Of a DNA stretch of 64,000 nucleotides, positions 6,032-63,136 are shown piece after piece. Made by a program: the position numbers and the translations under genes. This DNA is from Paraspadella gotoi (Eukaryota > Animalia > Chaetognatha), in the NCBI GenBank assembly GCA_051294375.1, contig CM119267.1, positions 6,065,992-6,129,991 of the forward strand. Reading direction: 5' to 3'. Positions within the stretch are counted from its first letter, which is position 1, and every line of letters begins with the position of its first letter. Below the pieces are notes generated by a model, which was not told the DNA's origin, did no database searches, and was given only the letters and a program-made list of their open reading frames with translations.

Positions 6032-6175
6032 TTATCGATCGTTCAATGGTTTCTTCATTTTTTCGCAAGTGACCTCCGAGCTGGGCTCTCGTAAGCGGCA
6101 TTTTTTTCCCAGCCTGCTAAAGAACATTTGGAACAATAAATAATATTACAATTTTAAAAGCATTCATAGATACAC

Positions 6176-7059
6176 TCATGTCCAATTTTTTAAGATAAAA
6201 TCCACAGCTTGAGAAAAGTTATCGCAGGTGGCATCAGGAGGAATATTAGTCTTTCTTTCGTCACCGTCTCGATATTTTCCAGTTCTAACGAGGATGCCCC
6301 TGAGTCCGATTGCCATGGCGCCGGCGACGTCGTCCTTGACGTCGTCGCCTATCATGGCAACTTGGCGCTCCTCGAGCGACTCGTTCCCACCCGCTCTAAG
6401 AGATTCTAGCGCGGCGCGGAAAAAAGCTGGCTCGGGCTTGCCGACAACATCAGCGACAACGCCGGTGCAATATTCTAGCCCGGCCACGTAAAGGCCAGGA
6501 CCTGCGCGAAGACCGGAAGTCGACTTGTAGTACCTTGACGAGAAGTTAGACAAAGTTGATCGGAAGTTCATAGGCCAGACTTTTCAAAATCCTTTCACCA
6601 TCACCTTGCTTTATGTATGGCGATGAGTCGACCTCCGTCCAGCAACACATTCATAGCCCGCGACATGTGGGCGTGGTCGAAACGTTCCGGCGCCAGACCA
6701 ACGACCACGCTGTCAGGGCTGTCTACCTCAACAGACATCCCTTCAAATTCATCCATCGCCGCGTCGTCGATCAACAGCAGTGGACGCAGCCCCTCCCGCT
6801 CCACCTTGGCTCGGGCCGCGGAGAGCGAGGTGAGAATCTCGTCGTTGCCAATTTTAAAGCCGAGAGCGTGGAGACGTTGGAGCAAGCGTCGACGGCTCTC
6901 CTTGGTCGTGTTGGTCACGAACTTGAGGGCAACGCCCTCCCGCCGCAAACGGTCTACGGCCTCTCGACATCCGGGAATCGCCTGATCGTCCACGTGAAGT
7001 GTCCCGCTCAAGTCTATGAGGACGGCTTTGATTCTGGGCGAGGAGAGCGAGGACATCAT
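6176..7059 (-). CDS. HDHD2: Haloacid dehalogenase-like hydrolase domain-containing protein 2, intron 6534-6604
   Basis: Motifs DLSGTLH, FVTNTTKES, IHKAR|YY across a GT-AG intron, VVGKP and MIGDDVKDDV. Confidence 0.93.
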
Positions 7060-7212
7060 GGACCTGAACAAAATTTGATGTTTATCACGGGACATGTTGG
7101 CCACGAAAGGAAGACGCATGTCTAAAAACGAAAAATTACATTGACAAACGAAGACGATAGATATAAATAAAAATTCATCGGTCGAGCGGCGAATAAACGT
7201 CTATCATGAGAG

Positions 7213-7635
7213 TCACAAGGCCCAAGGCGGAGTCTCCGATTCCCGTGGGGCTCCGGAAGAGTTCGAAGGAGCGGCGGCGTTCCCATCGCCCGCGGCGCCG
7301 CCGACCCGGGCGTCCACGTCGTTGTCGTCGTCTGGACTCTCGTGATCTTCCATGAGGTCGTCGATCTCGTCGTCGTCCTGCGACTCGCTCTCCTCTCCCT
7401 CTTCCTCGTCGTCGTCGTCGTCCTCCTCCTCATTGTTGAACTGTTCTGCGGCCGACTTGCCGATCGGGGGAATATCCTGCCCCTGGTTGCCCAGACCGTC
7501 CAACCAACTCTGGTGGCGCTCCTCTCGTTTCGATAGTTCCGCCTCGTCGTCCGAGGGACGGTCCACCGAGACCCAAGTTGAATCGGGAAAGGGGGGAGTA
7601 AAACTAGGAAAGATTCGAGAGCCCGGGAACTGCAT
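7213..7635 (-). CDS. ANAPC15: Anaphase-promoting complex subunit 15
   Basis: FPSFTP...W..VDRPSDDEAEL...E..HQSWL...IPPIGKS followed by an acidic tail. Confidence 0.85.
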   Translation of the reverse strand: MQFPGSRIFPSFTPPFPDSTWVSVDRPSDDEAELSKREERHQSWLDGLGNQGQDIPPIGKSAAEQFNNEEEDDDDDEEEGEESESQDDDEIDDLMEDHESPDDDNDVDARVGGAAGDGNAAAPSNSSGAPRESETPPWAL

Positions 7636-8176
7636 AGTTTTTATGAGGCTTTGTTTTGAAGGTTCCAAAACAAGAGTAACTACTTTACGAAAAAAATGCA
7701 ACAGCATTATCAATTAATCCGAAAAATAACACGGTTAAGAAATATTTTTTAAATAAAACTTTTTTAACACTAAAAAAAACATATTTTTTTGGTAAACATT
7801 CTGGTTGACTTCCATTATCGTACGATAGATTTAAAATTAATTCTCCCTAATGACTTGGGAATCTTTATTTGATATATACTATATAGTGATTAGTGAAGCG
7901 ACAAGAAGCAAGTAATAAAATTTCAAAATTAGAAGGTCCTATCGATAATTAATCAGTAGTAAATGCTTTACATATCCAAATTGGAAAGGATAATGATCCA
8001 AATAAGCTTGAAAAAAAATTGTATCGATACTTCAAACCAGTTCTCTTACAATACTCTATAGAGTAAATCAAGGTTCTAATGAGTATATTATATAGAACTC
8101 CCTAATTCAGTACATACTTAAAAAGGATTAGACAATAGACATGTTTCAGGGTCTTAGTATTGAATATTGTACATGA

Positions 8177-11100
8177 TTATTGCTGGTTAAACAACTGCAA
8201 ATCTAATTTCACAACTAGTTCTCCCTTCGAAACTTCGTTCAAGGGAACGTGCTTTGAAATGGGACCGCGCAACCTTTGATCCCTCTCCCTGAGAGAGGCG
8301 TGGATGTCTTTGATTGAAATTTCCGATCTCCCCATGAAATCGTCAGGGGTGAAATAATCCTTGTCGTAAACCGTGAGACAAAGCACGTCCTGGTCCAAAT
8401 CGTGAACTAGGAATTGCATGGAGGCGTTCCAGGTTGGACTGAGAGTCCTCTGCGCGACCTCAGTCCGATTTTCCTGCGACCCCATAGTGGCGTGGCAATA
8501 GGGATCGCTAAGTCCGTTGTCGTCCCTGTCGACTAGGTCACGGGCTTCAACTATGGTGATCAAGAGTCGCCCTACTGCTGGGATCTTTTTTGCAGACTCT
8601 TTTTTGGCCTTTAACTTCTTTTCTAAATCCAAACAACTCTTAGAAGCGTTAAGGATCTTACGAACCCAAGTCAGTCTCTCGTTGCGCGAATGCGCCTTCA
8701 GCAGTAACGGCTGACGCTCGGGACCCACGTTCAGCTGGAAGACTGTTTCATCCTCCTCGGAAAAAGTGGAAACCTCGACTTCGTTCAAGAAAATAGGCTG
8801 CCGATAGGTTTTCAGCTGCATGTCGGCTTCGACGTCCATTATGAAGGGCTTGTTTAGAGGCTTGACGGCTTGAGTGAGCAGCAGGAAATCGTTGAAGAGA
8901 AAGCCAACCAACTCTTTGTTGCTCTTCACCTTGGTCACGGTGCCCGCGTGAAGAAACTTACGCGGGCCGAGTGAATTTGTTAAGGAATTAAAGACTATGG
9001 ATTCTGACGACGATACCGATTCGCTGCTTCCTTGGGATTCACATTGCACGTGACTTTGGAGCCATTCCAAACGCTCCGTGTTCTCTTTTTCTCTCACTCC
9101 TTCGTTGACTTGGACGCAGAGCTCGTCCGCCTTCTCTGCCGCCTCTTTAACATACTCGTAATCAGGATGCTTCTCTGGCGTGTATTTGAGAATTTGCTTG
9201 ATGAGCAACGGATATTTGGTGATTCTCTGCATCGGTTTCAAGAGAAAACTGCTCAGTGGCATGCCTTTGGCCGAAGGATGTTGGCTACATCTCGACAGAG
9301 CCTCTTTGAAAGTAGAGTCTTGCTCGAGTCTGCGTTGAATAAAAGTGGAGGCTTTTAATTGACAACTGCAGTAGCGAATATAGGATGCAAAGTGCGGCAT
9401 GTTCTCGCACAGGATATCCCCGATCATAATGATGTCAGCCGACCCTTGTTTCTTGTTCTTTTTACACATCTTTTTTCTCACTCTCAAGGCCCGCAATAGC
9501 TTGTCGTTGGCCTGAGATATTTCGTGCCAGTTGACAAATATTGCATCGATCTCCTCGGGTGCCAAATTCGACGAGAGAGGTCGCCGGAATACCTCCATCA
9601 CTATGGAAATGTCGGCATGGTAGGCCTCTTCAGTTTCTATGAGCTCTAAAATGGCGGCTTGTCGGTGGGAAAGGATACCTCGCTGATCATCGTCGAACGT
9701 GAAATCGCTAGACCCCCTCGACGATGAACGAGCGACGTTCTGGCTCTCACCCGACGCGGTATGCGGCTGCACGTAATTGGCGGGAAACAGTCCCGTGCTC
9801 TTCACACGGGAACCGAGATCCCCCTCGAGCAAGTCGCCCCTCCACCAATCGACTTCATCCTTCTGCACGTTGGTGATCAAATTTCCCTTGAGGAAACTTA
9901 GTTCGTCGTCGTTCATCGCAGTATAATTGTAAAGGGCGACGACGGACTCTACGGGCACTCCCATCGAAGCGGACTGCGGACTCGCGGAGGTGCTGGACGA
10001 TGTCGCCGCAGCCGCTGAAGCCGCGGCTGCAGCGATGGAGACAGGTTCCGGGTTTGGCGTCGTGGAAGAAGAGCGTCCTTCGACGATCCGCTCAATTTTG
10101 ACGTAGTCGCCAGGGAACCAGCCAACCTGTCGCTTCTTGCCTCGAATCTGCAGCTCGCCCTCCCACCAACCCGAAGGATTCTTCTTGCGCACTGCCACGG
10201 TCTGTCCTTCGACGAGCGAGAGTTGCCCCGAGCCAAAGGCCTCAAAAGAGGCGATGGCTGTTGCTAGTTCTAATTCGCGTGTGCGACCGACGCTCTCTCT
10301 TCGAGATCGAGATCGACTCTCGGCCCGAGAGTCACCTCGAGAATCTCCCCCACTTTCGCTTCCCAGGCGAGTGGAACGGCCCGATTTTGAGGACCCCTGG
10401 GGTGTTTGCTTGCCCGTCGGGACGTCCAGATTTCCCGTAGGATGCTCCGGCTTTGGAGGTGTTGGTGATGGCTTGACGATGGGTTCTATCTCTCGAACGT
10501 AATTCGCAGGAAAGATGCCAGTTTTGTCGGCGAAAGTACCGGTCCACCAGTCGCCATCTGCGACAGAAACTTCAATGGTGACGCCAACGTCGAAATTTAA
10601 ATCTCCCGCCTCCGACGAGTAAAAGGGATAAAGAGAAACACAGCGCCGCACTGTGACAGTCTCGACGCCGGGAGCGACGCGGATCGGAGTAGCCGATCTC
10701 TCCGGAGCTGCGGCGACAGCTGAAACGGAAGGAGCGGTCGGGGCTGGCGTTAGCGTGGGTTTGATATCGAACGGCGAAGCCTCAAAGGCCGATGAAGCAT
10801 CGAATGCGGGCGTGGAAGACTTTGAAGGTGGAGTTGCCGACGCTGCCGCCGCCGCCTCGAACGAGTCTTTGATGGCGGAGACGCTCTTAGCGGCGGAATT
10901 CTGTGGCGGCGAACTCCACGTGTCGTTGGCAAACGGATCCTTTGGTTCAGTGGTGGTGACTGCGCTGGGTTCGCTTGTTGCCATACTATCCGTTATTTTC
11001 TCAACGTACGCTTCGGGAAACCATCCTGTTTTAAGACCCAGACGACCGCCCATCCATCCCGGATCGGCGTCCTGATTTTCGTCGACCTCCACAACGTCGC

Positions 11101-14008
11101 CTGGCTTGAGAGAAAGTTCATCCTCATTTCTGGCGTCAAACTGATAAATGGCGCGAAACTTGGTTAACTTTGGACCTAAAAAGGAAAAAGGATGTTTTGT
11201 TACGCTATACGTATTTAACACCGCTTTACCTCCGTCTTCACTCAATTACTTAATAAGTTCTACCCACTATCCTAACGACTTCCAGCTACGTTTGATGGAG
11301 ACAATTCTCTGAAGAAGATCATTTAAAGACTCACCCTCTCGCCCTCTTACACGTTTGCAAAGCAAGAAGAACTAGTATAACCGCGCCAATGGCAGGCGTC
11401 GCCACTGAGGTTTCGAAGCCCCCAACAGGTTAAATGCAAGATGCCCCACTAAACTTAGCATGACAGGCAACTATGATCAATCGTAGAATTATTTTTTTCT
11501 TTTACCGGAAGTCGACATTGGTTGAGAATCGCTGTTGCCGAAAGAAGCCCAGTTTGATGTCTTAGCTTCGAAACCTTAGAACCAAAGGCGAGACTTCGGT
11601 CGACCATTTAATTATTATAATAATAGTTATCGATAAACTTGATTTGGTCGAAGCACAAAAGAACATTTTTCACTCATAGTAATGTTTTTAGTTTTTACCT
11701 AGAGAAACTTGAGATTGAAGGGAAGGTTTACACGGCGGGAATACATCCGCCTTAAAGACGTCCGCAGATGATGACCAAACATCTTTGTTCCCCGACCCAA
11801 TTTCCTGGGTTTTTTTAAGCTCGAGTACCTTTTTGACCCATAAAATGTAATTTTTTTATTTCATATTTTGTCCAAAAAAAAAAAAAAAAAGAGGTAAGAA
11901 ACGAACAGTCTCGAGAACCCACCTTTTCGTACTTGACCCGTTGTTCCTCCTCCAGCCGCACGTTCTCGGCCTGCAGGGCTTCGATCTGTTCCCTTAACAC
12001 GGACATCGCTTTGGACATTTCGGCCACGGTGGTCGACTTCTCCTTAATTCTTTGGTCGATGTCGTCGAATTCCGAGCGAAACTTGTCAACTTTCTCCTTC
12101 TTCGCCCCCATGACTTTGAGAATACTGTCGTGACTGTCGGATGTGGAGGGATCGTCCTTCGTGAGAGGTTTGCCCAGGTATCCTGTTTGAGGAAAGGCGA
12201 AAGAATTATCGCAGATTTTTTTTTCTTCCGTTTGCTATCCAGCAAATTACCAGGAGTAGCAGCGAGCTGACGTTTAGAATCCATTAGTTTTCTTTCTAAA
12301 TCGGTGATGGTCGCCATCTTTTGGTCTCGACTCTCACGCATTCCATCGATGGCACGAGTTTGCGCCGTCACCTTTTAAATTCGTTAATTATGATCGAATA
12401 CATGACCACATTGACCAGAGGCCACAGGCAAAAATTATTATCAAACCTGTTCTCTCGCTTCGTCGATATCCTTAATTAGTTGAGAGGATTTATCCATCAG
12501 GGATTGATGCTCCGCGGCAAGGTCGTTGGATTTGGTTCTCAACCCCCTGACCTTGGCCATTTCCGAATTCTTTTTCTCCTCCATCTCCAGCCTTCTCTGT
12601 CGTAGCCACTCTTGCTGGCGTTGGCGTTCCAACTCACGTCGAGCCGCCTCTCTCTGCTCCAAAGCGCGCCGTCGCTGCTCCTCTTTTTCCTCTTCTATCT
12701 CTCGCTGCCTCGCCATTTGTCGCTCTAACTCCAATTGGCGGCGGCGCTCCTGCTCCTGCTTTATCCGGTCCCGCTTCTCCGCCTCGGCACGTTCGACGGC
12801 CTCCCGCATCGCCTGCTCCTTTTTCAGAGTGTCCTGAAGGGCGCGGCGACGTTTCTCCAGTTCCTCGTTGCCCTTGTCGAAGTTTTCCTTGCGACGGTCT
12901 TCAAAGGTCACCGGGCGAATATTGAGCGAATCGTCGTCTTCGAGAGAAACGGGCTGAGTTTGACCCATCGGCGTTAAAGTCTAAAAAAAAAAAAAAAATC
13001 AAATGGAAATTGTTATTCTCATTCTCCACTCTTTACTTTAATAAAGTTTTTCGAAATGATTCCAATCTGCTAAACATACCTGCGAAATACCCATAGATCG
13101 CAAATCCCCCGCGTTTGAGCTCAAACTAAGAACGGGAGCTTCGCCGTTGCCTCCGTTGCTGACGGAGGAGAGAGAAGCCTTTCTACGAAAGACCGAGGGA
13201 AGAAGTTCCTTAGGCAGAGTCGCCGGAAGAGTTTGGCCGGATTTGACCTGATCGATTAGATGCATGGCGATGCAAAATTCGTCCGCGCTCAACTTGCCGT
13301 CGTTGTCGTAATCCGAGAGGCCCCAAATGTGGGCCAACATCGTCTGAGTTCCGATTGTTAATAAAAAGCAAAAATAATCTTTTTTAAAACTTTTTTATGC
13401 TAGTAAGTAGTAACATAGTAAAACTCATAGTATACTCATTATATAAGCTATTTAGCCTTCCCAAAAAAATTAAAAAAAAAAAAAAAAAAACTCGCCTGTG
13501 AAAGACCAGAGTGTAAGAGCAAGGATCTTGCTTGGACTCCCGTCAAATATCCCATTCTCTGCTTGTCATGTTGATTGAACATTTGAGTAAACTTGAGCTT
13601 TTGGTTCTGCGGTATAGTCCAATCAACGCCGATGGACGAAGAGGACCCAGGAACAGTAGCCGAGACGATCGAGGATTTACGCGAGGGTGAGGCGGGTGCT
13701 CCGGACGGAGGGAATCCTCCCGTCGGGTCGCGCAACATTCCAGGCGGAAGAGAAGTCGGCAATTCGACACCCTTTAACCGTCGGGTGATGAGCGCCATGG
13801 CGATCGAGAATTCCTTTCTTGACATTCGGCCCTCCGATCCCTTCACGACCAAACCCCATATTTGAGCCAAGACTGGCTGAGGGAGGCCGCTCCGTAGAAA
13901 AAAGTCGCGCGCCTGTTGCCCCGTGATGTGATCGACGCCGGGCGCCAATTGGCCGAACTGACCGTCGTGACCCGCGCGTTCTTCGCGAGAAATGGACCAA
14001 ATGTCCAT
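8177..14008 (-). CDS. ITSN1: Intersectin, long form (EH-EH-coiled coil-SH3s-DH-PH-C2), ~8 exons
   Basis: Two EH domains (13038-14008), a KLERQ coiled coil (TFEDRRKENFDKGNEELEKRR), and SH3, RhoGEF, PH and C2 domains in the exon at 8177-~11175. Confidence 0.95.
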
Positions 14009-14465
14009 AATTTTTGTTGGAATGTCGCTCTAAAAGATTAATTAGCGAAACATTTCCGACAAAACGAAATGGTTTTTCCGAACCAACATTTTCAAAAGAG
14101 AAACCATAACAAATAATGGGTTAATATAAAAACCATCACTGAAAATTTCAAATATTTAAACTAATTTCACAAAAGCTAATAAAGCGAGATATAATTACTT
14201 TTAGATTGTAACGTAGTAAAAAGCTAAGAAAAATACAAATAAAATAATAAAAAAGTGAAAAGTAATGACAAAATTCCTCGATACTATATAAAAAGTATGA
14301 GATGAAAAATGACCCAAACCATATCACAGAAAAGAGAAACATATCCTTTCGGAGAAGGTAAACTTGAAAGCTTTAAAATAGCGAGAGTAATCGCAGTGAA
14401 TTCGCTCTCTGAAACTCAAACTAATGCGGTGGAACTGACTTTATTATTTTTTTTTTCCCTAAGCG

Positions 14466-17400
14466 TCAGCGAGGTATCATCCTCGCAACGCGAATCGTCG
14501 AAGAGTCTGCCGAAGAATCCAATAAAACGGGAATGACTAGAGAAGAAGCGTCGTAGGCGCAGATTCCGTCCTCCGACTGACAATAAAAGACGACAAACTC
14601 GACCTTGACTTCCGCCCGCGGACAATCGCGGCCGACGACGGCGCCGAGATTCACGGTGGCGCCGAAAGTAGCGCCGTCGAAAACGACGAAGCCGCGAGGA
14701 GGATCCTGGGACTCTTGACCTATTTCCCTACGGCAGATGAAGAACGAAGGAGCGTCGGCGGTTTGCTTGAAGCCCTCCTTCAACGTCAACTCTAATCTAA
14801 TCTCGAGGTCACCGTCGACGACTCGCTGCTCATCCATTGACGACTCGAATACTCCTCGTGAAGGCAGCTGAAGGGGAACGGGTAAGGTCTCGACGACCGA
14901 GTCCAAGACGAAGTCTACCACTGGAGCCTGGCCACTCTCGAGGTCAAGAAGGAGTACACGGTGATTGTTGGTGTCGGCAACGAGAAGTTTGGGCCTTTCT
15001 TTCCAAAGAAAGAAATCGAGACCGCCTGGTTCGTTAAGCTGGCCCTCTGCCGGAGGCCAAATAGTGGAGCACGACCCGGATTTTGGACATACAAGTTTGA
15101 TTTTGTGGTTGTAGGAATCGGCCACATAGATTCGGTTCGAGGAATAATCAAAACAGATTCCAAGGGGATGTTGAAGTCTGGCTTTCATTCCCTCTCCTGA
15201 TAGAAGAAAAACTCTGGTATGTTTACTAATTAAACCCACACAAATCAAAGTCGCACCCACCGTCGCAATCTCCGAAAGCAAAAAGATTCTTTGGATCGTG
15301 ATCGCCGCCGACCAAGGGTCTCGTCGCGCCGTCCTTGAGGTCGACATCGCGAATCGTCGAACTCTCGGCGTCGGCGACGAACAATGAATTAATTCCGTCT
15401 TTAGCGCCTGACTTGGAAGAATGAGAAGGCGGTGGTGGTGGCCGGGGTGGTGGCGGTGGTGGAGGGGGTGGTGGGCCAACCTGCTATGGCGAGATAAAGA
15501 GAAGTTTTAAAAAATTATTAAGTGATAAATTTTATAACAACAAACAGTCGACATTCAAACGTGTTTTTTTCGCACCATTGGGTTGGACTTACCTTAATAG
15601 ACGAATCTGACGGCTCCGAAGCAACCGGCGAAACGGGTGAGACGTTAGTCGTTGAAGGTGTCATTGACGTAGCTCCTTCGGAAGTAGTCGTCTCGTCGTC
15701 ACCAGAATAAAATCCCAAGCAAACTCCGCTTGGTTGCGCGAATCCGGCGCGTGGAGGGTAACTGTTGTTGCGATTCTCCTCGACGCCAGATCCCAGGAAG
15801 CGAACGCAGGTGGAGGCAGGAAAGAAGACCTTCTTGTACCACAAAGAATGACAAAAGAAATAGACCCATATTTGGTGAGTTCCCGCCATGGCGATGAAGG
15901 CGACATCATGGCCGTCAATGGATTTGCCGAGGCAAACGTCCCAAGGAGAAGATATTTCCTGCTGTGGGCCAGGGAGACCGCCTTCAAAATCTTGGCCTTG
16001 GAGACCTTCAAAATAAAATAAATTAAAAATATTATTTAAGAAAGGATGATCATAAGGGTGCAGTGATGAAAAGATTGAGTGTTGGAACAATGTTTTTTGC
16101 TGCCTTTGTACATGTAATAAAAAATAATTAAGCCCCTTTTCAAAAAAAACTTTGCATAACAGTATCATAAATTGAATGTTTTTTATCGTAATATCCTTAT
16201 AAAATCTTAAAATTTCAAAACCATTTTTTTTCAATTTTAATAGGTTTCCGATTCACCGGGAAAAAATGAAAAACTTTTGTAAAATATGTTTTATAATATT
16301 TTTAGGTTAAACCTGCGAAAAATTTTAGTAAAACGTTTCATCATCATATGATTCACATAATAGTTTCTACTACAGAGAGTGAAAAAGTGGAAAATTTTGG
16401 CTTTTTTTGACGCTGAAGACATTGAAATTTTTAATAACATGTTTTATATTTTTGATCTAATTTTTATAAAAAAATGAGAATCTTTAATAAAATTTAAAAA
16501 ACAAATATTTTTGAAAATTTATTATTTTATAAGGATATTACTATAAATATATTATAATTAATAATACTGTTCCCAAAACAATATAAGCAAAATATTTTTT
16601 GTACGCGTTAATCATACTATCTCACGTCTAAACATCCTTGTGTGTTCACTCAAATAAAATGTATGTTGCCCAGTGCTCCACTCTAATAAACATATAAAAC
16701 GTATTCCCGATTCTTACCAGGGATTCCGGCGAGAGTTTCGACTTTTCCGAGTGAGCCGTTTTTAGGAAACGAGATCACTCGCAGCAAATGATTGTCGGTG
16801 TCGGCGACGAGTAATTTCCGCTCATCATCATTCCACCAAGCGACCCCTTGAGGAAATCTAAACTCTGGTTGGGACGATCCGCCTCTTCCGCCGAAGGTTC
16901 CGTCGCGACTTCCTTCCGACTTTCCGCCGATGACGTGATGCACTTGGCAAAAGACGTTCGATGATCCGGTGGAGTCGTCCGATCGCATGGATCCAACGAT
17001 GATTCGGTTGTTGCCGGAATCAGCGACGGCGATTTGCCCGTCCTTAGAAACGCAGACTTTACCCGGGAATGAGAGATGCAAACTGACCCCAGTCGACGTA
17101 AGAGTATCCACGATATCTTTTAAAGGTATCATTGGGAGCGGATTCTTATTGAGCGGCAGCTTAGATCGGTTGGAGTAGAACTTCAACGCGGCTTCGACAA
17201 AAGCGAAAAGAGATTCTCGATTTCCCTCGCCCTCGAACATCGTCAAAAGCTTGCCGCTCGGGGAAACGAGGACCAGGGTGGGCCAACAGCTTACACCCAA
17301 TTCATCCCACAGCCAAGAATCCGCATCGTTTACTACCTGGCAAAAGGGTAATAATTGACTATTAGATATTATTACTATTACGATGGAAGAAATTGTTGAT

Positions 17401-17940: not shown

Positions 17941-18122
17941 CTTTCAATCTTGTAAAAGATCAAGGTCGATGATTGCGTGATAAATATTGACTTTTAGATT
18001 AACGAGATGAGGTTACCAATAATTTAGGATGATTTGACGTAAAATTAGGTGCAATAGGCTACATAATTTATGAACTCGTACCAATTTTATAGTTCCAAGA
18101 CTGCCCTGTGGAGACTGGAGAG

Positions 18123-20155: not shown

Positions 20156-20298
20156 CTCAACAATAAATAAATTTCAATTCTATATTCTTATTCATCTTTG
20201 TTGTTTTCTCACTAAACGAATTTTAAATAATTGATCGAAATAAAGTAAAAACAATGACAATCAACATATTGAAAGACAATTTCGAAAACTCATTTTTT

Positions 20299-28065: not shown

Positions 28066-28066
28066 G

Positions 28067-51010: not shown

Positions 51011-53203
51011 ATGTTCATCACGAAAATTCGCCCTGTATTCGGGACTTTACGTGGCATAAGCCACCGCTTAAACTCCACGGCGCCGATCACCTCGGTCGAG
51101 GACGTCGGTCCGGTGCGAACGATTTTGCTAAATAACCCCAAGAAGAGAAACGCTCTGGGCCTTCAGATGTTGGAGGAGCTCTATCAGCATATCTCCGCAT
51201 CGTCCTCAATGGAATCAATTAAGGTTCTCGTCATCGGCCACGTCGGCCCAGTCTTTTCGTCTGGCCATGACCTCAAAGAACTTACGCCCGAGAGAGGGAG
51301 CGAATTTCACGCGAATATTTTTGACCTTTGCACCAACGTCATGAAACTTGTACAGGTATCGATCGTACTTCGTAGTACGTCCTAATACTTTATCTATTTA
51401 ATGTATTTATCTTTATCGTTTAGAATTGTTTGTGTCGTCGTCTTCGTCACGCTATTTTACAATTGGAAATTGTAAAAGTTTTTTTTTTTTTATCATGAAG
51501 GTCATGTTTCATATCAATACTCGGATTTGTTTGTTTTATTTATAAAACAATTTTTATATAAAAAATAGGAATTACAATTAAGTTTTAATTATATTTCTTT
51601 CTCTTTTAATTATATGTCGCTCTCTCTTTTTTTTTCCTTTGCTGCTTCTTCTGATTCGTCTAAAAACAAGTTCAGCTCTTCAGCGGCTGGACTTCTCTTT
51701 CTCTCTCTCTCTCTCACTCATAAACGAATTTGTTTGTTTCATTTATTATGAATGACTCATCACATCAATGAATGACTATCATCACATTAATAATTAATTA
51801 TCACCATATTAATGATTCGCATCAATAATTGGTTATCGCATTAATAATTGGTTATCGTCGTATCAAAAATCAATTACTATTACATCAATAATCAAATACT
51901 ATTATATCAATTACTATTACAATAATTTGTTATCGCATCAATCATTCGTTTTTTTTTCCTGATTTTTTCATGAATTTTTTTTTGATAGTACTATCTAGGA
52001 AAAAAGTATATCACATAATTTATTTCTTTAATAAAAAGTATTCAAAACATGGATAAAACATCTTTAATATTTGGTAAGCCATTCCTCGGCATTCATCTGG
52101 ACATGCTCTCATACAGCAAATTGAGGTATGACAGTGAAATATTTTTTCACATCTTTAACGCAATTCTTTTCAGCCACGATGTTGATGTTGCGTATCTTTC
52201 CCTCTTTTCTGAGAGCTATAATAGTACTTTTTTGAACCAAAAAGAGGTGCAAGGCCTTTAGCATTACCAAATTAAAAAGAAATTAAAAAAATAACTAACT
52301 TTATTCAAAATAAAAACAAATAACTAAATACAAAAAAATGGTGGAAAAATAAATATGATTTTTTACGACATTAAGTAACAAAATTGTTTTGCCTCTAACT
52401 TCTATACGATTTGACCTACAAAAAATGGAAGGAAGATACTAAAAGGAAATTCAATGTAGATTTGGAAACATTCTTTTTTTAAATCAAACAAGTTTTCGAG
52501 TAGATATCCTTTATTAAAAATGTGATATATTTTTTTTCCAAGATCGTCTGTCGAGATCACTATACTTTTAAGATTTTTTTTTTCTCAACGAAAATTATTT
52601 TATTTGCTATACATTCATTGACATACATATTGCGTAGGATGTTCCCATTCCAGTGATCGCTAAGGTGAATGGCTTAGCAACGGCGGCAGGATGTCAGCTC
52701 GTGGCGACTTGCGACATTGTCGTCGCGACGCAAACTTCAAAGTTCGCCACTCCGGGCGTCAACGTGGGTTTGTTTTGTTCAACTCCGGGTAAGTGCAACT
52801 GACAACTGAGGGCTATCCCACACGGGATTTATTTGTTTAACCCTTCTCGCCAGCCGTGGCCGTGGCTCGCGCCGTTCCACAAAAAATTGCGGCGGAGATG
52901 CTCTTTACCGGCGAGCCCATCGACGCAGACGCAGCCCTCCGACATGGGCTTTTGTCGCGAGTTGTCCCGGAAAAGGAGTTGGACGCCTCGGTGGACCAAC
53001 TGACAGCTAAAATTTGCTCCTATTCCCGGTCGGTCGCTGCTGTCGGGAAAGACTGCCTCTACCGGCAAATGAGGATGGAGAGGGACGCCGCCTACAAATT
53101 GGCGGGGAAGACCATGGTCGAAAACTTGCGGCTCTTGGACGGACAAGAGGGGATAACGGCGTTTGTCGAAAAAAGAAAACCCGTTTGGGTCAAATACAAT
53201 TGA
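51011..53203 (+). CDS. ECHDC3: Enoyl-CoA hydratase domain-containing protein 3 (mitochondrial), 3 exons
   Basis: [43 protein letters not shown] and [14 protein letters not shown]. Confidence 0.95.
51590..52580 (+). mobile_element. Copy of the SAMM50-intron repeat family with a nested TIR element (51995-52542)
   Basis: Shares gttcagctct.cag.ggctg, the minisatellite and the end gtctg.cgagatca.tatacttttaagatttttt. The nested TIRs are CTAGGAAAAAAGTATATCACA and TGTGATATATTTTTTTTCCAAG, flanked by AT. Confidence 0.7.
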
Positions 53204-53364
53204 AATTAAATCATTGGAACTTGGAATTGTTCCGATTATTGAATCGATTTTTCTTTTATTTATTTCGTATTATTTAACTGTGATATTTTTATCTTCAAAT
53301 TTAAAAAAAAAAATTGTGACATCTTTATAGATTAGGGCTAAGACATACGTATATATTATACACT

Positions 53365-55179
53365 ATGGAATCGGAAATATTGTCCGAATCCGACTCAGCA
53401 ATGGATGGCGCCAAATGTGTTTTGGACGATCTGTTGGAAAAACTGGAGCCCCCGCCGATTATTCCGCTGATTCCACGAAAAAGTCATTCAAATTCACACC
53501 TTGGCGACAACGACGCAAAAAAAGAAGAACAATGCAACGGATATCCTGAACCAGAGGCACTAGCCCCGAACATTCCTCCAACGGATATACTGAGCCTTCT
53601 GGATGAAAAGCTCCATCACAACAACGATACAACCGACAAATCTGACCGAAAATCCATTTGTTTTTCTGAAGAATCTCAGCCGGGTCACAAAGCGAAAAGA
53701 TCTCGCGAAAACGGAATTTCTGAGGCTTCCGAGGCCGACGAAGGCTCATTGTTGTCCCCTCAAATTCAATCCCGTCCCAGTTTGTCGGCAACCATTTCTC
53801 AACTCGCCGCCCGAGTCTCTTTCATCGACACACAGGAAAACGAAGACGACGACGAGGACGATGATGACGGAGACGCCGTCGATGCGGACAGGACTTTCGA
53901 TAAAGTTATTCAGAAAGAGAGCGCAGAAGATAGCGTTGAGAAAAATAGGAATATAGACAGCAACTTCGAGAACGACAAGGACGACAAGAACAGTGAGCAT
54001 GAAGCGGACAAAAGCGCCCTCGATGACATTCAAAAAGGTGCCGACATGGCCGAAAGCGTTGACGATTACGTGGAGACTAACATTAGCGCTGACAGTGAAA
54101 TGAAATTAGAAGAGAGCAGCAAAGTCTCCGAGAGGGACATTGACGCCGATACACCGCCAAGAACAATGACGAAAGACCAATTGAACGACGCATTAAAAAA
54201 AAGGTTTTACGACTTTGTCAGCACTCTTTTCGAAAAAGCCGAGAGCATGGAAACTCGGTTTTCTCATCTTGAAAAGATGACCGAGGCGCTCCGGCGACGC
54301 CATCGGGAGCAGGACAAAACGTTGATGAAGATTGAACGCACGACGAAATCTAACGATCGTCGTGGAGGCTGCCGGCACGTGGCGTGCCAGACGAACCTTG
54401 GCGGAGGATCGTTGATCGCCGCTCAAAAGATGTCGCGCGGTCCCAGTCGACAGCCGGCGCCGGCCGGTTCCGCGGGAAGACATCCTGGTAACTCGGCAAA
54501 GCGGAATCAGGAGGTCGTGGATTTGACGGACGAAGACTCCGGTCCCGCCCTGAAGCGCCCCGCCACCGCCCATACACAGGCTTTTTCCCAGTCCGGTCAA
54601 GTCCCAGTGTCGAGCAACGCCGCCTTGCAACGCCTGGTAGACTCGGGCGCCGCGAAATTCGTCGGAGGCGCCCCAACAAAACCCTCTTCTCCGGCGAACG
54701 TCCCTCTGCGGTCGGTCACGAATCAACAGGTGGGACTAGCTTACCTTCAACAGTCGCCAGCCCAGCCGCCGCCCGGCATGCCGTTGCTCCTGGCTAAGCA
54801 TCCCGCACCCCTCCCGTCACAACCCGTGTTGATGGTGTTGGGCGCAAAGCCGACTCCTCCCAAGCCATGGCTGAAAATCGAGCTGGTACCGATGCAGCAC
54901 AACCGCGGAGTAATGCTTTCGTGGGACATTAACTCCGACTTGAGCGTTTTCTCCAAGATCGTCAAGTATCAGTTGTTCGCCTACCAAGAGACGGTTGCCA
55001 CTCCCTCACCGAGCCTGTGGAAGAAAGTGGGGGACGACGTGGCCGCCATGCCTTTGCCCATGGCATGCACTCTTTCTCATTTCTTGTCGGGGAATCGATA
55101 TCACTTCGCCGTTAGAGCCATGGACGAACATTCTCGCGTCGGCCCTTTTAGCGACCCGCAGTCAATTTTTTTAGATTAA
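53365..55179 (+). CDS. ATF7IP: ATF7-interacting protein (MCAF1/Windei; SETDB1 cofactor), intronless
   Basis: Acidic N-terminus, coiled coil, SIM-like VVDLTDED and a C-terminal FnIII domain (GVMLSW...YQLFAYQE...WKKVG..AMPLPMACTLSHF...YHFAVRA.D). Confidence 0.9.
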   Translation: MESEILSESDSAMDGAKCVLDDLLEKLEPPPIIPLIPRKSHSNSHLGDNDAKKEEQCNGYPEPEALAPNIPPTDILSLLDEKLHHNNDTTDKSDRKSICFSEESQPGHKAKRSRENGISEASEADEGSLLSPQIQSRPSLSATISQLAARVSFIDTQENEDDDEDDDDGDAVDADRTFDKVIQKESAEDSVEKNRNIDSNFENDKDDKNSEHEADKSALDDIQKGADMAESVDDYVETNISADSEMKLEESSKVSERDIDADTPPRTMTKDQLNDALKKRFYDFVSTLFEKAESMETRFSHLEKMTEALRRRHREQDKTLMKIERTTKSNDRRGGCRHVACQTNLGGGSLIAAQKMSRGPSRQPAPAGSAGRHPGNSAKRNQEVVDLTDEDSGPALKRPATAHTQAFSQSGQVPVSSNAALQRLVDSGAAKFVGGAPTKPSSPANVPLRSVTNQQVGLAYLQQSPAQPPPGMPLLLAKHPAPLPSQPVLMVLGAKPTPPKPWLKIELVPMQHNRGVMLSWDINSDLSVFSKIVKYQLFAYQETVATPSPSLWKKVGDDVAAMPLPMACTLSHFLSGNRYHFAVRAMDEHSRVGPFSDPQSIFLD

Positions 55180-55689
55180 TGATGATTAAAATTCGTGTTC
55201 ATAACTTACGTTTAACCTTATTAGTTTCTTTGCCTGTACGGTTTCTTTCTCGACGATTTAAAATATTATTTATCAACTTTTTTTTTTTTTTTTGATCGAA
55301 TGTGAAATTGTTTTATCAAATTTTTTTCGTAACAAATAATCTCACCTTCGTCCTGAACTAAAACGCACATTGATTCGAAAATGTTTTAAATTATTTTTTC
55401 TTACTTCATCGGTTTCTTTATTATCGAAATACAAGCATCTTTATTTTTTTTCATTATGGATTATAGTTTTTCGTACTTGAATAGCGAAATATATTAAAGA
55501 TGTTCGTTTTTGTAGATAAAAGAGTTCGAAACCGGCTAAATTAGATGAAAATGTATGAAAATACAAGTTATGTTATCAAAATACCAGTACAGTTTACAGT
55601 CAATTTCTGCATATTTCAAAAAAAAAATTGTTTTCTCCCCCCAAGTTTGATTTAGATTTGGCAAAAACTCAAAAAAACCTTTGAAGAAA

Positions 55690-56055
55690 ATGGCTTATAA
55701 AGGCGGGAAGGTTCAAAAGGTGATGGTGCAACCGATCAACTTGATCTTCCGATACCTCCAAAACCGTTCGCGAGTTTCCGTCTGGCTATTCGAAAACGTC
55801 AACACGCGAATCGAGGGCCACATTATCGGATTCGACGAATACATGAATCTCGTGATGGACGGAGCCGAAGAGGTAGACAATTTGCCCTCCGAAATCGCGT
55901 CGCCAAATTGAAACTAGATTTTTTTTCTCATTTTTCAGGTCCACATGAAAAAAGGAACGAGAAAGACGGTGGGAAGGATCATGCTCAAAGGTGACAACAT
56001 CACGCTGCTGCAGCAGATCGACGGCGGACAAGAAGGCGCAGCTGCTCCTGAATAA
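55690..56055 (+). CDS. SNRPE: Small nuclear ribonucleoprotein E, intron 55873-55938
   Basis: [18 protein letters not shown]...[10 protein letters not shown] and [13 protein letters not shown]. Confidence 0.97.
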
Positions 56056-56225
56056 TCCTTATTATTAATCATACTATTATTGTCGTTACTCTTGTTTACG
56101 GCAGCTTTCCATTTCGAATTGTTTCCTTTCATTCGAGTTATTCAATATTCATTCAGTTATATTACTTTATCATCCAAGAAACGTTTACTTTTTTAAAATG
56201 TCCTAGACCCTTTAGCGTCGCTGAA

Positions 56226-57605
56226 ATGTCCATAAACGTCCTGCCGGTGGAAATACTGTTAAAGATCTTTAAATTTTTAAAGCCCTCGGATCTCAATCGC
56301 ATGGCCTTAACTTCAAAATGGTTTCGAGACGCGGTGGAAGTCGATTCTCTGTGGGAAACGAAAATTCGTGAAGCTTATAATCTAAATCCCACCGATTATA
56401 AAATTCCGGAGACGTTTCCTGTTGTGACGGCCAAATCTTTTTATCGATACGTGTTAGCCAAATACGGCAATTGTCTCGGATTCTGGCGCCGGAAACACTT
56501 TAGAGGATGCCTCCTCATCATTTACGTTCGAGGGGGAGAAATGGTAGGGTACAAAGTTAACCCTCCTAAAAGATTTCACGACGGCGTCGACAAGACGCTC
56601 TGCTTCAAAATTAAAATGAAAGGAGTAGATGCCATCGAAATTGAATATTACTTCAATGGAAATTTATGTCGAGGAACCGATATCGATATCAGATACAGTA
56701 ATGGGGACGAGGAATCGTTATTAATCATGACTTCCGATCTTAAACATACTCATAACAGGTAACGTGAAGGAGTATGTAAATTGTACTTTTGCATTGTACA
56801 GTGATGGTCATGATATAAGTTTTATTAGGTTACCCTAACATATGGAAAATTAGCATTGAAATTCATGCTCAAGATAAGCTCAAGATAAACTCGAGATAAA
56901 ATTTTAAATGTAACAGCATGTTTACCTTCGGTTACTGTGACCGTCCCTGGCCGATCGATTACGCCAAAACTGCCGGTCACTTTTTCGTTCAGCAAACGCG
57001 GAACCTGTGATAAGACGGAAGCGTTCGTCCCAATCGGAGATTGGTCCTCTCCATCACGTATGCCAGCTAGGAAAGTTTGTTCTTTGAAACCCGGAATGTA
57101 CAAAGGGAGTTACAGAAGCGAAGGGATCGAAATCGTCGAAGTATTCGTCAAATCGGATTCGCTGCTCTTGGGCAAAAAAATCACGGGCGATCAATACGTC
57201 CCTGCTGGAGAAATTAGCTTCCGAAGTCGATTGGACGCGCCGCTTCATCCTCGGGTCGACCAGATGCAGCGAATGAACTCGTTAAGATTAGTCTCGATCT
57301 GTCAGAATTTTGACTGCCGTTGTCCAAATCCGTTTCCTCTTCAGCCTTTTCGGGTGCCTTTGGATTGTTCTGTGGACGTGCCCGGGTTCCCTCATCCCTC
57401 TGAGGCCAAGGGATGGTTTTCAGCTGAGTACAGAGTTGCATACCCTCGATTTACCAATCCCGAATGGGTGCAAGCTCATATGGTAATTTTCAGCGAAAAT
57501 GAGTTTGCTATGTTTTGTTTCCAGCTAAACGACAGAGTTGTGTTCAACAGTCTTGCGTTTTATACCAAGTTGAAGGATTTTGATAAAATGCCATTTGATA
57601 AGTAG
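56226..57605 (+). CDS. FBXO31: F-box protein, FBXO31-like, 2 exons
   Basis: N-terminal F-box plus C-terminal KPGMYKGSYRSEGIEIV...GKKITGDQYVPAGEISF, typical of the cyclin D1-binding domain. Confidence 0.8.
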
Positions 57606-57934
57606 ACTTTAATGTTGCCTTTATAACTGTCATGTATTTTTTTGCCACGCTTCTGACGTTTTTCCGTTAATATCATTAAATTTGTAACACCTGTTTTGCT
57701 TTGATTTCCATTTTGATTTTTTTAGATTTTAATATTTTTAGATATTCTGACAGCATTTGTTGCTGGGTAAAAAATTATTAACATTTTTTTTCTTCACCGT
57801 TTTAATTTTATTATTGCACTTTCATTGACTTTTAGACTAAGTCACTTACCCACTGATCTCAACTAACGCCCAATGTATGCTTTCAATCAAATGTCTACGT
57901 TCCTCCATTAACGTTATTCTCGAAACGGAACGCG

Positions 57935-60900
57935 ATGGCAAAATCTTCTCCCCTGCCTTTTTTTGTTGACGAATATTGCCCAAACGGGACGTCGCCTTCT
58001 ATCGCCTGGGCGGACGACGGTTTAACCCATTGCTTTATTGACACCGTCTCTTCCTGTCTTCTTTTCGGCCTCTTGCTGATTTTTGGGTCTCTCGAAATAT
58101 GGGTTTATTGGAAATATTCTACGCAAATTCGGCGCGATCAGCGACCGAAATCGGCCTTCTTCCTCTTCCAGATCGTGTTCACAGCTGCGCTGACTCTCCA
58201 CTATATCGTTTACTTATTCTTGAGACTATTCTTCCTTCGCGACCGCGAAATCTTCGGATACATGATCGTCGCGGCCACGTTCACCATATTGACGTACCCG
58301 CTCTCTCTAGTGGTGATTCTGCTGGAGCGTCGGCGCCAGTTGCCGTCCATACCAACGCGCGGTCACGGATTTGTGTTGCTGATCTTTTGGACGCTGGCCT
58401 TCGCCAACGAGAACCTCGCCTTCGTTTCCATCTATGGATCGACATGGTTCTGGCGTCTGTCGTCAACCTCAGACAGCGTCGAATTTGCTCTTTTCGTCGT
58501 GCGTTACGCGGCGACGCTCTATCTATTCGTCGCCGGCTTTTTTGCTCCGGGAATTCCCAAGTCTTCGTCGCTGACACGAAGATCCTCCTACCACAACATG
58601 CGGAACCATGGGGATTTGGGTGAGTCCAGCTCAGGATCCACCTGGCGAAACCTGGGGAGGAAGCTCAAGCTCATGTTCATATACATCTGGCCAAAACGAT
58701 CCCTGCCGCTGCAGTTGGTGGCCCTATTTTGCTTCACTCTCCTCATCGCCGGTAGAGGAATCAACGTAATGGTTCCCATTTACAACAAGTACATCGTCGA
58801 CGATTTGTCGACGGCCATAGGGCGAGACGACAAAGGCAAACCCATCTTTCGATTCTGTTGGGACTACATTCTAGTCTACGTTGGGTTAAAGTTTCTGCAG
58901 GGCGGCGGCGCTGGCGCCTCGGGCCTGCTGAACAACCTTCGCTCATTTTTGTGGATTCGAGTGCAGCAGTACACGACTCGTGAGATATCCGTCTATTTCT
59001 TCGGACATTTGCATAGTTTGTCGTTGGGTTGGCATCTTTCTCGCAAGACCGGAGAAGTTTTGCGGATCATGGATCGAGGAACAAATTCGATGAACAACCT
59101 CTTGAGTTATATATTTTTCAACATCGCGCCCACCATCGTCGACATAGTCATCGCCATCGTTTATTTATCTTCGGCTTTTAATCTATGGTTCGGGCTCATT
59201 TGTTTTCTCACGATGGCTCTTTATCTCTTGGCCACTGTTTTAGTCACCGAATGGAGGACGAAATATAGGTATGTGATTAGTTGATTACTCGGGTTTTTAT
59301 TATACACTTAGAAATTTCTTTAACTATCTTTCTCCTCTTTCCAAAAGACGCGCGATGAACAAAGACGATAACGATCGGAACGCCAAAGGTGTCGACTCTC
59401 TCCTTAACTTCGAGACTGTCAAGTACTATGGCGCCGAAGACTACGAGGTCGGTCGATACCGCGACGCCGTCCTCAAGTACCAAGTCTCTGAATGGCTTTC
59501 CAATGCCTCCCTGGCGGTACTCAACGTCGTCCAAGGCTTCGACATCAACGCCGGCCTCTTGGCGGGCTCTCTCCTTTGCGCATACATGGTGGCCAACGAT
59601 ATCCAGGGTCTGACTGTCGGCGACTACGTCCTCTTCGCCTCTTACATCGTCCAACTATACGCTCCGTTGAACTGGTTCGGTACATACTATCGCATGATCC
59701 AGCAGTCTTTTGTCGACATGGAGAACATGTTCGAGTTGTTGGCTCAGCAGCAGACCGTCAAAGACATACCAATGGCGCCTGAATTGCGCCTCGACAACGG
59801 CGCCATCGAGTTCCGCAACGTGCACTTCCGATACGTTGCAGACAAGGAGATCCTCAAGGGGGTTAGTTTCACCGTGCCCAAGGGAACGTCTCTTGCGTTA
59901 GTGGGTCCATCGGGCAGTGGAAAGTCGACGATCATCCGCCTCCTCTTCCGCTTTTATGACGTGGACGATGGAGCCATTTTCATTGACGGACAGGACGTGT
60001 CAAAAGTAACGCAAAAGTCGCTGCGGCAGTCAATCGGCGTTGTGCCTCAAGATACGGTTCTGTTTAACAACGACATCCGTTACAACATTCGTTACGGCAG
60101 AGTAAATGCCTCGGACTACGAGGTTAGTTTCTTTTATTATTTGCAATGATGCTGTTGTCGTAAATGTAGACCGACTAATCCCCCACTCTTTCAGGTAGAG
60201 CAGGCGGCCATCGCGGCGGACATTCATGACAAAATCCTTTCTTTTCCCGACGGCTACGAGACGGTGGTTGGAGAACGGGGGCTGAAACTTAGTGGCGGAG
60301 AAAAGCAGAGAGTAGCCATCGCCAGAACCATTTTAAAGGTACGTTATATGGGCATAATTTTACTTTCGCCGACTGGGGTAAGGGAATTTAGGGTTAAGTG
60401 TTGGAGGGAAGTGGGTGAAATCGACTCGTAAGGATGTCCCACAGAAACTTTGGAGTGAAAATAATACATGGAATATGAGGGTATTGGGGGAGCACCGTGC
60501 TATTTGCAGAGGCGGACTTGCAAATAAACCGGTGGAGTCGTGCCACACGAAGAGATGGTTGATCAGGCCAATCTCCTCCGACTTCTTAAGCAGGGATATC
60601 TGTTGAGCCTGTAGTCAAGTCATCCAAATAATACCACGCGACAAAGTGTTACTGGCAATCGCAGAGGCCTGCCGTCTCTACAACGTCGAAGCGTTGGACT
60701 GCGCAAGGACACTCCAAAAGAGCCAACCAAGTCTCAAGCGCCAGCAGTATCTGGCTCTAGGACAAAGCTCGGTCGAAATCCACAGAGAAAATGATATTGA
60801 AATGAAAAGAACCAAATAACTTCACAGTCTAGCTGAACACAAGGCTATCAAAACAGCAGGACTGCTGATGGATGAACAGTCTCCAATCCACAGTGCCTCA

Positions 60901-62020
60901 GAGTTGACCCGAAAGACTTATGGGTAACAAAGCACGCTTCCGAGAATGTAAGCGTGTGAACTGTCGACAGTGGGTGCTCCACAAAAGTGGATAGGACGGT
61001 GCACCACTGTTGGAGGCGGATTTTATGGGGATTCGCCAGCGGGCGAAGGCGGCTCGCGTCAGGTGGTATTGGGATCGCATCGGGGTCTCCCACATCGTCC
61101 TCCAAACTGAGTCTGAGCGGGCGGCGCAGTCGACAGAAGCAATAGTCTTATCGTATGGATCTATGAGATATGAGAAGCACACAATATGACAGGGAGACGC
61201 TGACCAAGAACTGTGTATTCTGACACTTATCATTTATACATATAAAGCACGATAATCATTTATCTGAAATGTAAACAATAACAAATAAGGTAAATAAAAG
61301 CAATCATTATTTATATTTTTATTGAAGAACAGTTCCTTAATTGTTCGTAGCAAATTGTTCTTCATCTCGAGTCCTTCGATGTCCGCACGAATTTGTCTCC
61401 AACATAAGGGTGGTTTAGGAGTGGTTTAAGGTGATTAGGGCTCGGTTGTTTAAGGTTAAGGTAATCAGGTAATACATTTTTTTTTGAATTATTTCTTTTT
61501 TTAAGTAGTTTTTTTAAAAAAGCCAAATAAGGCAATAAAACGAATATTTTTTAAGCCATTTTTACTTGTAAACAGATTTAGTGTAACTGAAGTATTTTCT
61601 CAGGCCCCCAGCATCATCCTTCTCGACGAAGCGACGTCGGCCCTCGACACGCAGACTGAGCGGAACATCCAAGCGGCGCTGGACGTGATTTGTAAGAACC
61701 GGACGACGGTGATGGTCGCTCATCGTCTTTCTACTATCGTCAACGCCGATCAGATCCTCGTGCTTAAAGAGGGCGAGGTCGTTGAGAGAGGTCGCCACGA
61801 GGAGCTCCTCGCTGCCGATGGACTTTACGCCGGAATGTGGAACCAACAACTGGAGGCAGATTCCGATGACGCGCGCGAAGGGGCGGATGACGAGAATGGA
61901 GACGACTACGACGGCGGAGAAGACGGTACCCCCGCCGTGGCCGAACTCGCTCCGACGGAAGTCGCCGTCCGAATCGAGGGGAAGAAGTCAGGCCAGGAAA
62001 AGGGCGATGAGAACGTTTAG
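57935..62020 (+). CDS. ABCB6: ABC half-transporter ABCB6/HMT-1, 4 exons
   Basis: TMD0 (YCPN...CFID), [47 protein letters not shown] and [10 protein letters not shown]. Confidence 0.96.
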
Positions 62021-62315
62021 ATAGGATATCGGGTTACGTTGCGCATCATCTGTGTTGTATTAGTTGTATTAGTTCGGAATAAGAAATTCGTGTTTCTTAC
62101 TGCTGGTTTTGTTCTATTTTATTGCGGGATATTTTGTTTATTTACCACCGTTACGTATTTCTGGTCTTATTGTTACGTAGGTTTTTTTTAATGGTGTCGA
62201 GTAGATAGTACCTTTGTTCTAGCTAAATTTACTTGTATTTTTGATTGATTCACGTTTAGAAATTAGGCAAAAATTTTAGGGACAATGAAATGGGAATTTG
62301 GAAAATAGAATAATA

Positions 62316-62918
62316 ATGTCCAATAGAATCGGAAAGCATAAGACCTCCTCTACGGACTTGAGAATTTTGCAAGAATGCGAAAAAGAGGCCTTCGTCAATA
62401 AAAGCCTCCCTTTGATGATCGGTATGGGTGTCGGAACGCATTATCTCGTCAAAATTGGCAAACTGACCGCCAATCCGAAGTGGGGATCCTTGGTCAAAGT
62501 GAGCTTCGCTGCGCTCTGTGGCAACATTCTCGGCAGACTACTCCACATCGGGACGGTCAAGGAAAAGCTCAAGGCGGAACCCAACTCTTTGCTGGGCCGA
62601 GAATTACGGCGCATTGAGGGCTCCCCGCTTCTTGAGCCCACGGATCTAGAAGTTATCGATATTCTGCGTTCGGAAACCCAAGGGCGAGGCGAGGCGAGTC
62701 GGGAAAGCGGCTCGTTGGATCACGGTTACGACGAAATGAGGCGCCTGCACAGAGAGAACCCGGCCGCTGTGGCGCCTTCTGTTTCGGAACGGATGAATAA
62801 ACCTGTGAGGGACTCGATTCAAGGTTCTTTTGACGACATCCCTCCGGAGGAAAGGCCTATCAACAAGAGGATGCCCGTTCCAAAGAGGAACAAATACGGA
62901 GACATCATCGACGACTGA
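62316..62918 (+). CDS. OCIAD1: OCIA domain-containing protein (Asrij)
   Basis: ILQECEKEAFVNKSLPL...PKWGSLVKV..., NSLLGRELRR, YDEMRRLHRE and the C-terminal RNKYGD. Confidence 0.85.
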   Translation: MSNRIGKHKTSSTDLRILQECEKEAFVNKSLPLMIGMGVGTHYLVKIGKLTANPKWGSLVKVSFAALCGNILGRLLHIGTVKEKLKAEPNSLLGRELRRIEGSPLLEPTDLEVIDILRSETQGRGEASRESGSLDHGYDEMRRLHRENPAAVAPSVSERMNKPVRDSIQGSFDDIPPEERPINKRMPVPKRNKYGDIIDD

Positions 62919-63136
62919 GTTTTCCGCGATGATTGATGCTTTTTTAAGTTTTTATTTATTTTCGATTGTTGCCAGTCCGTCAGATGCGACGTCTCTTTCG
63001 GACGTTGTATCGTTTTCCTTGGAATCGAACCCTCGTCCCTTTTACGCGAAAGGATTCTTTTCGTGGCAGAATTTACCTGCCGAGCCTCGAACAGACGATC
63101 CGCACAAAAGCAGGATGGATATCGATAATCCACGCG

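Follow-up and report, generated by a model that had tools for sequence, protein, structure and literature searches.

Are the genes in the 64-kb stretch of DNA analysed here (hereafter the window) organised in operons whose transcripts are resolved by spliced-leader (SL) trans-splicing? Animal operons and SL trans-splicing are patchily distributed, and a single versus a repeated origin is debated. The original prediction had answered the question positively, based on operon-sized gaps between genes and unpaired 3' splice acceptors just upstream of start codons. We found an operon-like organisation to be supported, the orientation of the 28 genes lending it more weight than the acceptors do. One of these acceptors, at 30816, turned out to be cis-spliced, and the nematode-type motif TAYYTT was not enriched. 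We consider long operon-like co-transcription likely, and resolution by a spliced leader, which we infer, plausible, and we put the probability of this reading at roughly one half. The original observations are confirmed in part and their interpretation is supported in part; the gene arrangement behaves like an operon system, with a putative membership among SL-resolved operons.

Gene orientation and spacing

The gene set was based on open reading frame (ORF) calls, splice-aware gene models and Pfam, and comprises 28 protein-coding genes that are mostly unrelated to each other and of a housekeeping nature. Except for BTBD2 and SIN1, the orthologue names used here are those of the original prediction or presumptive ones of our own, based on Pfam domains; the exon of THUMPD3 that was tested gave no Pfam match. 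The strand switches only once in 27 neighbour pairs, leaving 26 of the 27 pairs co-oriented (P ~2e-7 under random orientation). Merging of genes at gaps of at most 250 nucleotides (nt) reduced the set to 16 units, and the orientation bias was still significant (P = 5e-4), indicating either units that extend far beyond the short-gap groups, or a series of separate operons that all point the same way. The two rows measure ~28 kb (minus strand, at least 12 genes) and ~33 kb (plus strand, at least 16 genes), both being open at the window edges, and long unidirectional rows extending from a divergent strand-switch region are therefore a feature of the window. Tandem-duplicate-like pairs were found only twice among neighbours, namely the CCCH zinc-finger genes (38955-45765), which have no further Pfam domain, and the intronless TMPPE-like metallophosphoesterases (24604-27771). 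Scanning seven unassigned ORFs for hidden genes yielded the start of GUCD1 as the sole match.

The 26 same-strand gaps, measured from stop codon to ATG, range from 108 to 1813 nt with a median of 304 nt, and 12 of them are 250 nt or shorter, so that the adjacency, co-orientation and short spacing expected of an SL-resolved operon are all present. The twelve gap lengths originally listed (those between 108 and 230 nt in Table 1) were exact, and they are the 12 shortest of the 26, although two hinge on the choice of start codon, with in-frame upstream ATGs at 7119 (HDHD2) and 62984 (GUCD1). Since the gaps are counted from stop to ATG, the true intercistronic regions would often be shorter than the ~100 bp of the nematode type. 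The gaps had also been described as U-rich, and T indeed outnumbers A on the sense strand of 22 of the 26, but the same holds for 26 of 34 introns, and U-richness is therefore not special to gaps. Gaps and introns could not be told apart by their CpG counts either. The poly(A) signal AATAAA occurs in none of the 12 short gaps, whereas 6 of the 14 long gaps contain it no more than 200 nt from the stop codon (Fisher p 0.017, post hoc), and variant hexamers, at scattered positions, are present in 10 of the 12 short gaps. The words TTTAC/ATTTAC were found 22 times before ATGs against 9.8 expected (0 of 300 shuffles), having been picked from ~800 words; as a gap signal this motif failed a split-half test over whole gaps (z 3.6 in the minus row, 0.9 in the plus row), and it is a lead only. 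The sense strand of the longest gap (B3GT to PWWP) carries a weak match to a type-P5 twister ribozyme at 3654-3696 (minus strand; 30.6 bits versus a gathering score of 37.6, E 0.018 for the window), which may be a retrotransposon remnant or chance.

[quoted passage not shown] The first genes would keep ordinary cis-spliced 5' exons, and the short gaps would be polyadenylated without AATAAA. Each row may consist of several operons in file, rather than being one unit. In this reading we infer the co-transcription, the breaks between transcription units, the leader with its RNA gene, and the AATAAA-free polyadenylation.

The divergent region between the rows is likely a shared promoter region, near 30.3 kb. 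It contained no Pfam match (two ORFs tested), no tRNA and no Rfam match at the gathering score. The first plus-strand gene, SIN1, has a non-coding 5' exon, and the donor of its 5' untranslated region (5'UTR) intron scores 8.5, versus a median of 7.5 for true donors; the branch-point-like ctaac that had been flagged upstream of 30816 belongs to this cis intron. For the first minus-strand gene, TMPPE1, a 5'UTR intron or outron is predicted, the AG of which (27825) lies directly behind a repeat element that is also present in a spliced SAMM50 intron. This AT-rich, minisatellite-bearing repeat has three copies (27834-28067, minus; 47950-48640, plus; 51750-51990, plus), always in the transcribed orientation, and the copies at 27834 and 48637 end just before an acceptor AG. 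A degenerate TTAGGG-like array (28348-28447) also lies inside the divergent region.

Acceptor signals and RNA-like contigs

The genome is intron-poor, with 34 coding introns modelled in the window, most of them 61-112 nt long, and with several genes lacking introns. An acceptor model was trained on these 34 introns, leaving out the introns of the FBXO31-like and PWWP genes, and the best acceptor score before each ATG was compared with that of 400 dinucleotide shuffles, using windows of 70, 85, 100 and 130 nt. All 28 genes together beat the shuffles, with 1, 0, 7 and 1 of 400 reaching the observed score, respectively, and for the 26 internal genes the numbers were 5, 1, 36 and 7. The acceptor signal before start codons is therefore real but modest. 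All ten AG motifs named in the original prediction exist within one base of the place given, although for three of them (38899, 46022 and 49721) another ATG lies between the AG and the real start. Most have no good donor in their gap; for 32602 and 38899 there are candidates with scores of 6.3-6.7, a level within the lower half of the true donors.

Additional evidence came from the assembled contigs of one sequencing run, X1, which covers 0.81 of the sampled words of 30000-39000 and was compared over 30301-50300. The contigs skip introns at 12 of the 15 joints listed, and the run therefore behaves as RNA. One contig of 9953 nt, with the introns removed, extends from THUMPD3 through UQCR10, PABPN1 and OXA1L to the first CCCH gene, and another of 4862 nt covers the second CCCH gene, SAMM50 and UBE2A. 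Together, the contigs bridge six of eight gaps and read through five of the six named AGs that they cover (35467, 37191, 38899, 46022 and 49721). At modelled introns the assembler took the spliced path, so that these five AGs are unlikely to be efficiently spliced in cis. Assembled contigs show neither transcript starts, ends, a leader nor single transcripts.

The gap between the two CCCH genes was not bridged. Here a contig departs from the genome at 43709 with 25 further letters, possibly poly(A), followed by a strong AG at 43746 and an apparent break in RNA cover from 43710 to 44013. At 44014 the next contig begins, one base past the AG at 44013, which is the top-scoring acceptor in the 100 nt before the ATG when scored independently of the RNA; 11 of 361 positions in this gap follow an AG. 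As processing sites these contig ends are suggestive only, and with a local donor at 43845 as its partner, 44013 could be an acceptor in cis. Within the window, a search for an SL RNA gene gave no Rfam match at the gathering score and nothing SL-like at E values up to 1, nor was there a strong donor combined with an Sm-like site.

Several observations weigh against co-transcription followed by SL resolution. Merging of gaps up to 400 nt weakens the orientation test to P 0.02, and at 600 nt the test becomes uninformative. The Ur motif TAYYTT occurs 23 times in the 130 nt before ATGs versus 19.6 expected, a number reached by 75 of 300 shuffles. The AG at 30816 is spliced in cis to a local donor at 30670, so that the claim that the acceptors are not joined to local 5'UTR exons fails for one of the ten, while for the five read-through AGs listed above the term unpaired remains appropriate, in that the X1 contigs contain no cis joint there. 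The 18 genes without a named AG show no significant acceptor excess (43, 37, 168 and 87 of 400 shuffles for the four windows), and the overall excess is largely owed to the ten genes singled out by the original prediction. In simulations, a cis-strength acceptor within 70-130 nt of every internal ATG was rejected (0 of 200 simulations as low), and such an acceptor near the ATG of ~25-50% of internal genes fitted the data, whereby the procedure is somewhat biased against the full model, as shuffling preserves the pyrimidine content of the real sequence and acceptors used in trans might differ from those used in cis. Intronic contigs at a depth of 6-8 represent background DNA or precursor and could alone bridge the gaps. 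The break exactly at 44014 would, reasoning from graph assembly, require a partner whose last base is other than G, but G stands at -1 in 31 of the 34 donors of the window. Finally, no leader sequence was seen in the contigs, and none of the six loose contig ends listed falls at a predicted acceptor. Assemblers of this kind would drop a short leader as a dead-end branch, and its absence from the contigs is therefore uninformative.

Unbroken, intron-free contigs covering five and at least three genes are also what would be expected if the rows were co-transcribed without any leader, either as stable multi-gene mRNAs translated by leaky scanning or re-initiation, or as precursors that are cleaved and re-capped, with the AGs being chance or minor sites. 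The short gaps without AATAAA, and the fact that at least half of the internal genes have no cis-strength acceptor near their ATG, agree with this, and polycistronic mRNAs have been reported from green algae (available text of PMC7896298). However, a multi-gene contig does not show a single transcript, five successive long ORFs are hard to translate by scanning, and for the whole gene set the acceptor excess remains significant. We regard co-transcription without a leader as quite unlikely.

The cis-spliced 5'UTR intron of SIN1, and probably that of TMPPE1, would fit an ordinary compact genome in which a small promoter and a poly(A) site belong to each gene, perhaps in overlap with the 3' end of the neighbouring gene, and in which the AGs are chance occurrences or the ends of cis 5'UTR introns. 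The missing acceptor excess of the unnamed genes and the similar T-richness of gaps and introns are consistent with this, and the annelid Dimorphilus has, according to the accessible part of PMC7854359, a genome of 73.8 Mb without operons or leaders. Yet the 26 co-oriented pairs, with merely two tandem-like pairs among them, would be left unexplained, no cis joint is seen at five named AGs, and gaps of 108-146 nt would have to fit a 3'UTR, a promoter and a 5'UTR. For the window, such a compact but operon-free organisation therefore appears unlikely, and we favour operon-like co-transcription, plausibly resolved by a leader.

Comparison with known operon systems

In Ciona intestinalis and Oikopleura dioica, tunicates that use a single SL, operons are likewise tight same-strand groups of unrelated genes. 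According to the available part of PMC7986045, Ciona operons are mostly dicistronic with up to seven genes and often have no intercistronic region, and the intercistronic median in Oikopleura is ~31 bp, SL being used in both. An operon definition for Oikopleura is given in PMC11067885, in the accessible text of which no maximum size was found. Intercistronic regions this short, or missing altogether, would be in keeping with the 57-180 nt stop-to-AG distances in the window, once the 3'UTR is subtracted. The rows described here differ by containing at least 12 and at least 16 genes, compared with up to seven, although a row need not equal one operon, and by a leader that is putative. The operons of the chaetognath Paraspadella gotoi, as far as the available text of PMC12460157 goes, contain housekeeping genes, were defined with a <250 bp criterion, reach nine genes at the longest and need no operon-specific leader. 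The window resembles them in its housekeeping genes and gaps below 250 bp; at a stop-to-ATG cut-off of 250 nt its groups hold 2-4 genes, all co-oriented, again with a leader that is presumed.

In the SL2 operons of nematodes (Caenorhabditis elegans, Trichinella spiralis), the Ur motif lies ~50 nt and the poly(A) signal ~100 nt before the acceptor. The window resembles these operons in that its gaps are short and its sequence is rich in T ~60-130 nt before the ATG. For T. spiralis, the part of PMC7668243 that was available gives TAYYTT as the Ur motif and an intercistronic median of 124 bp. In contrast, the window shows no TAYYTT enrichment and no AATAAA in short gaps, and its acceptors are variable rather than of one fixed consensus.

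The window's long rows of unrelated genes, each read in one direction away from the strand switch, are reminiscent of the directional gene clusters of kinetoplastids, judging from abstracts. The AATAAA-free short gaps are a further likeness, this signal not being known from kinetoplastids. The window differs in having 34 modelled coding introns, cis-spliced 5'UTR exons, an acceptor that is not found at every gene, and the apparent break in RNA cover at 43710-44013, and its rows are known over only ~30 kb each. In kinetoplastids SL is obligatory (available text of PMC7986045). Titles and beginnings of abstracts gave no report of directional gene clusters in animal nuclear genomes, the matches being mostly kinetoplastids and dinoflagellates. 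Likewise, no SL or operon reports for kinorhynchs, gastrotrichs, gnathostomulids, priapulids or Xenoturbella were found in the mostly open-access literature, the supplementary tables of which could hold longer animal operons. It is a tentative and rather unlikely possibility that an animal lineage, possibly of a phylum without reported trans-splicing, is organised in a trypanosome-like manner, with clusters of at least a dozen genes that are transcribed away from a promoter at the strand switch and whose transcripts are separated by a leader or in some other way, and with AAUAAA-free polyadenylation.

The window combines conservative proteins (BTBD2, with 76-78% identity to orthologues of other animals) with an intron-poor genome that is read one way over tens of kilobases. 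If the operon reading is true, this lineage would have unusually long polycistronic units and would make it possible to test directly if operon growth is driven by genome compaction.

Feature coordinates, protein relationships and single genes

Table 1. Coordinates of the gene rows, the region between them and the gaps discussed in the text. Gap lengths are from stop codon to ATG.
Feature	Positions	Strand	Remarks
Co-oriented run, 12 genes	65..27771	-	ORFs, gene models, Pfam; continues past window edge; in transcription order: TMPPE-like (two), BTBD2, F-box, ACBD5, NHLRC2, ITSN1, ANAPC15, HDHD2, B3GT/GT31, MUM1-like PWWP, HDAC11-like
Co-oriented run, 16 genes	30840..64000	+	ORFs, gene models, Pfam; continues past window edge; in order: SIN1, THUMPD3, UQCR10, PABPN1, OXA1L, CCCH zinc-finger (two), SAMM50, UBE2A, ECHDC3, ATF7IP, SNRPE, FBXO31-like, ABCB6, OCIAD, GUCD1
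Divergent region, sole strand switch	27772..30839		ORF map
Predicted 5'UTR intron or outron of TMPPE1	27825..30286	-	strong AG 27825, candidate donor 30286
SIN1 non-coding 5' exon	30395..30669	+	contig; 49 further contig letters upstream
SIN1 5'UTR intron, GT..AG, cis-spliced	30670..30816	+	X1 contig joins 30669 to 30817
HDHD2-B3GT gap, 144 nt	6032..6175	-	best AG 6114
ANAPC15-HDHD2 gap, 153 nt	7060..7212	-	AGs 7122, 7064
ACBD5-NHLRC2 gap, 182 nt	17941..18122	-	only weak AGs near ATG
F-box-ACBD5 gap, 143 nt	20156..20298	-	weak AG 20212
BTBD2-F-box gap, 136 nt	21667..21802	-	AG 21689
SIN1-THUMPD3 gap, 146 nt	32472..32617	+	AG 32602; donor-like 32488 (score 6.7) could pair with it
THUMPD3-UQCR10 gap, 108 nt, shortest	34963..35070	+	weak AG; intron-free contig bridges
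UQCR10-PABPN1 gap, 230 nt	35290..35519	+	AG 35467 read through; no gap donor >1.2
PABPN1-OXA1L gap, 822 nt	36413..37234	+	strong AG 37191, contig reads through
OXA1L-first CCCH gap, 379 nt	38576..38954	+	AG 38899 read through; donor-like 38715, 38814
CCCH-CCCH gap, 568 nt	43503..44070	+	unbridged by contigs
Second CCCH-SAMM50 gap, 314 nt	45766..46079	+	AG 46022, contig reads through
SAMM50-UBE2A gap, 227 nt	49609..49835	+	AG 49721, 114 nt from ATG, contig reads through
ECHDC3-ATF7IP gap, 161 nt	53204..53364	+	AG 53330; 153 AG-free bases upstream; no gap donor
SNRPE-FBXO31-like gap, 170 nt	56056..56225	+	
OCIAD-GUCD1 gap, 218 nt	62919..63136	+	65 nt if start is in-frame ATG 62984, just after AG 62975

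The protein relationships were examined with three trees (23, 28 and 18 rows picked among 120 listed matches), for which taxon sampling was poor. BTBD2 shares 76-78% identity with its orthologues from vertebrates, amphioxus, echinoderms, annelids and molluscs and 90% with an environmental protein, and a quick tree placed it outside vertebrates, echinoderms, molluscs and insects. SIN1 forms a clade with 100/100 support together with five proteins of 44-57% identity, its best taxon-labelled matches being molluscs (38-39%), and the tree did not resolve this clade against molluscs, vertebrates, a single chelicerate and a single sea anemone. A metagenome scan with a UQCR10 alignment gave three loci from 522 pattern matches, which were 41-46% identical and included no close relative. 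One of these loci (L001, 1-10156) is unrelated, compact and intron-poor, and differs from the window in having long ORFs on both strands.

GC-AG introns make up a high share of the models, 4 of 34 (13495, 34624, 46273 and possibly 5537), and two of them are backed by RNA joints. No single-frame model could be made for the FBXO31-like gene (56226-57605), in which a stop codon terminates an 11-nt tandem duplication near 56866-56888. The cause may be a defective gene copy, a slip in the assembly or an intron that went unrecognised. The UBE2A/Rad6-like enzyme (49836-50408) carries a C-terminal tail of ~40 residues past the catalytic domain.

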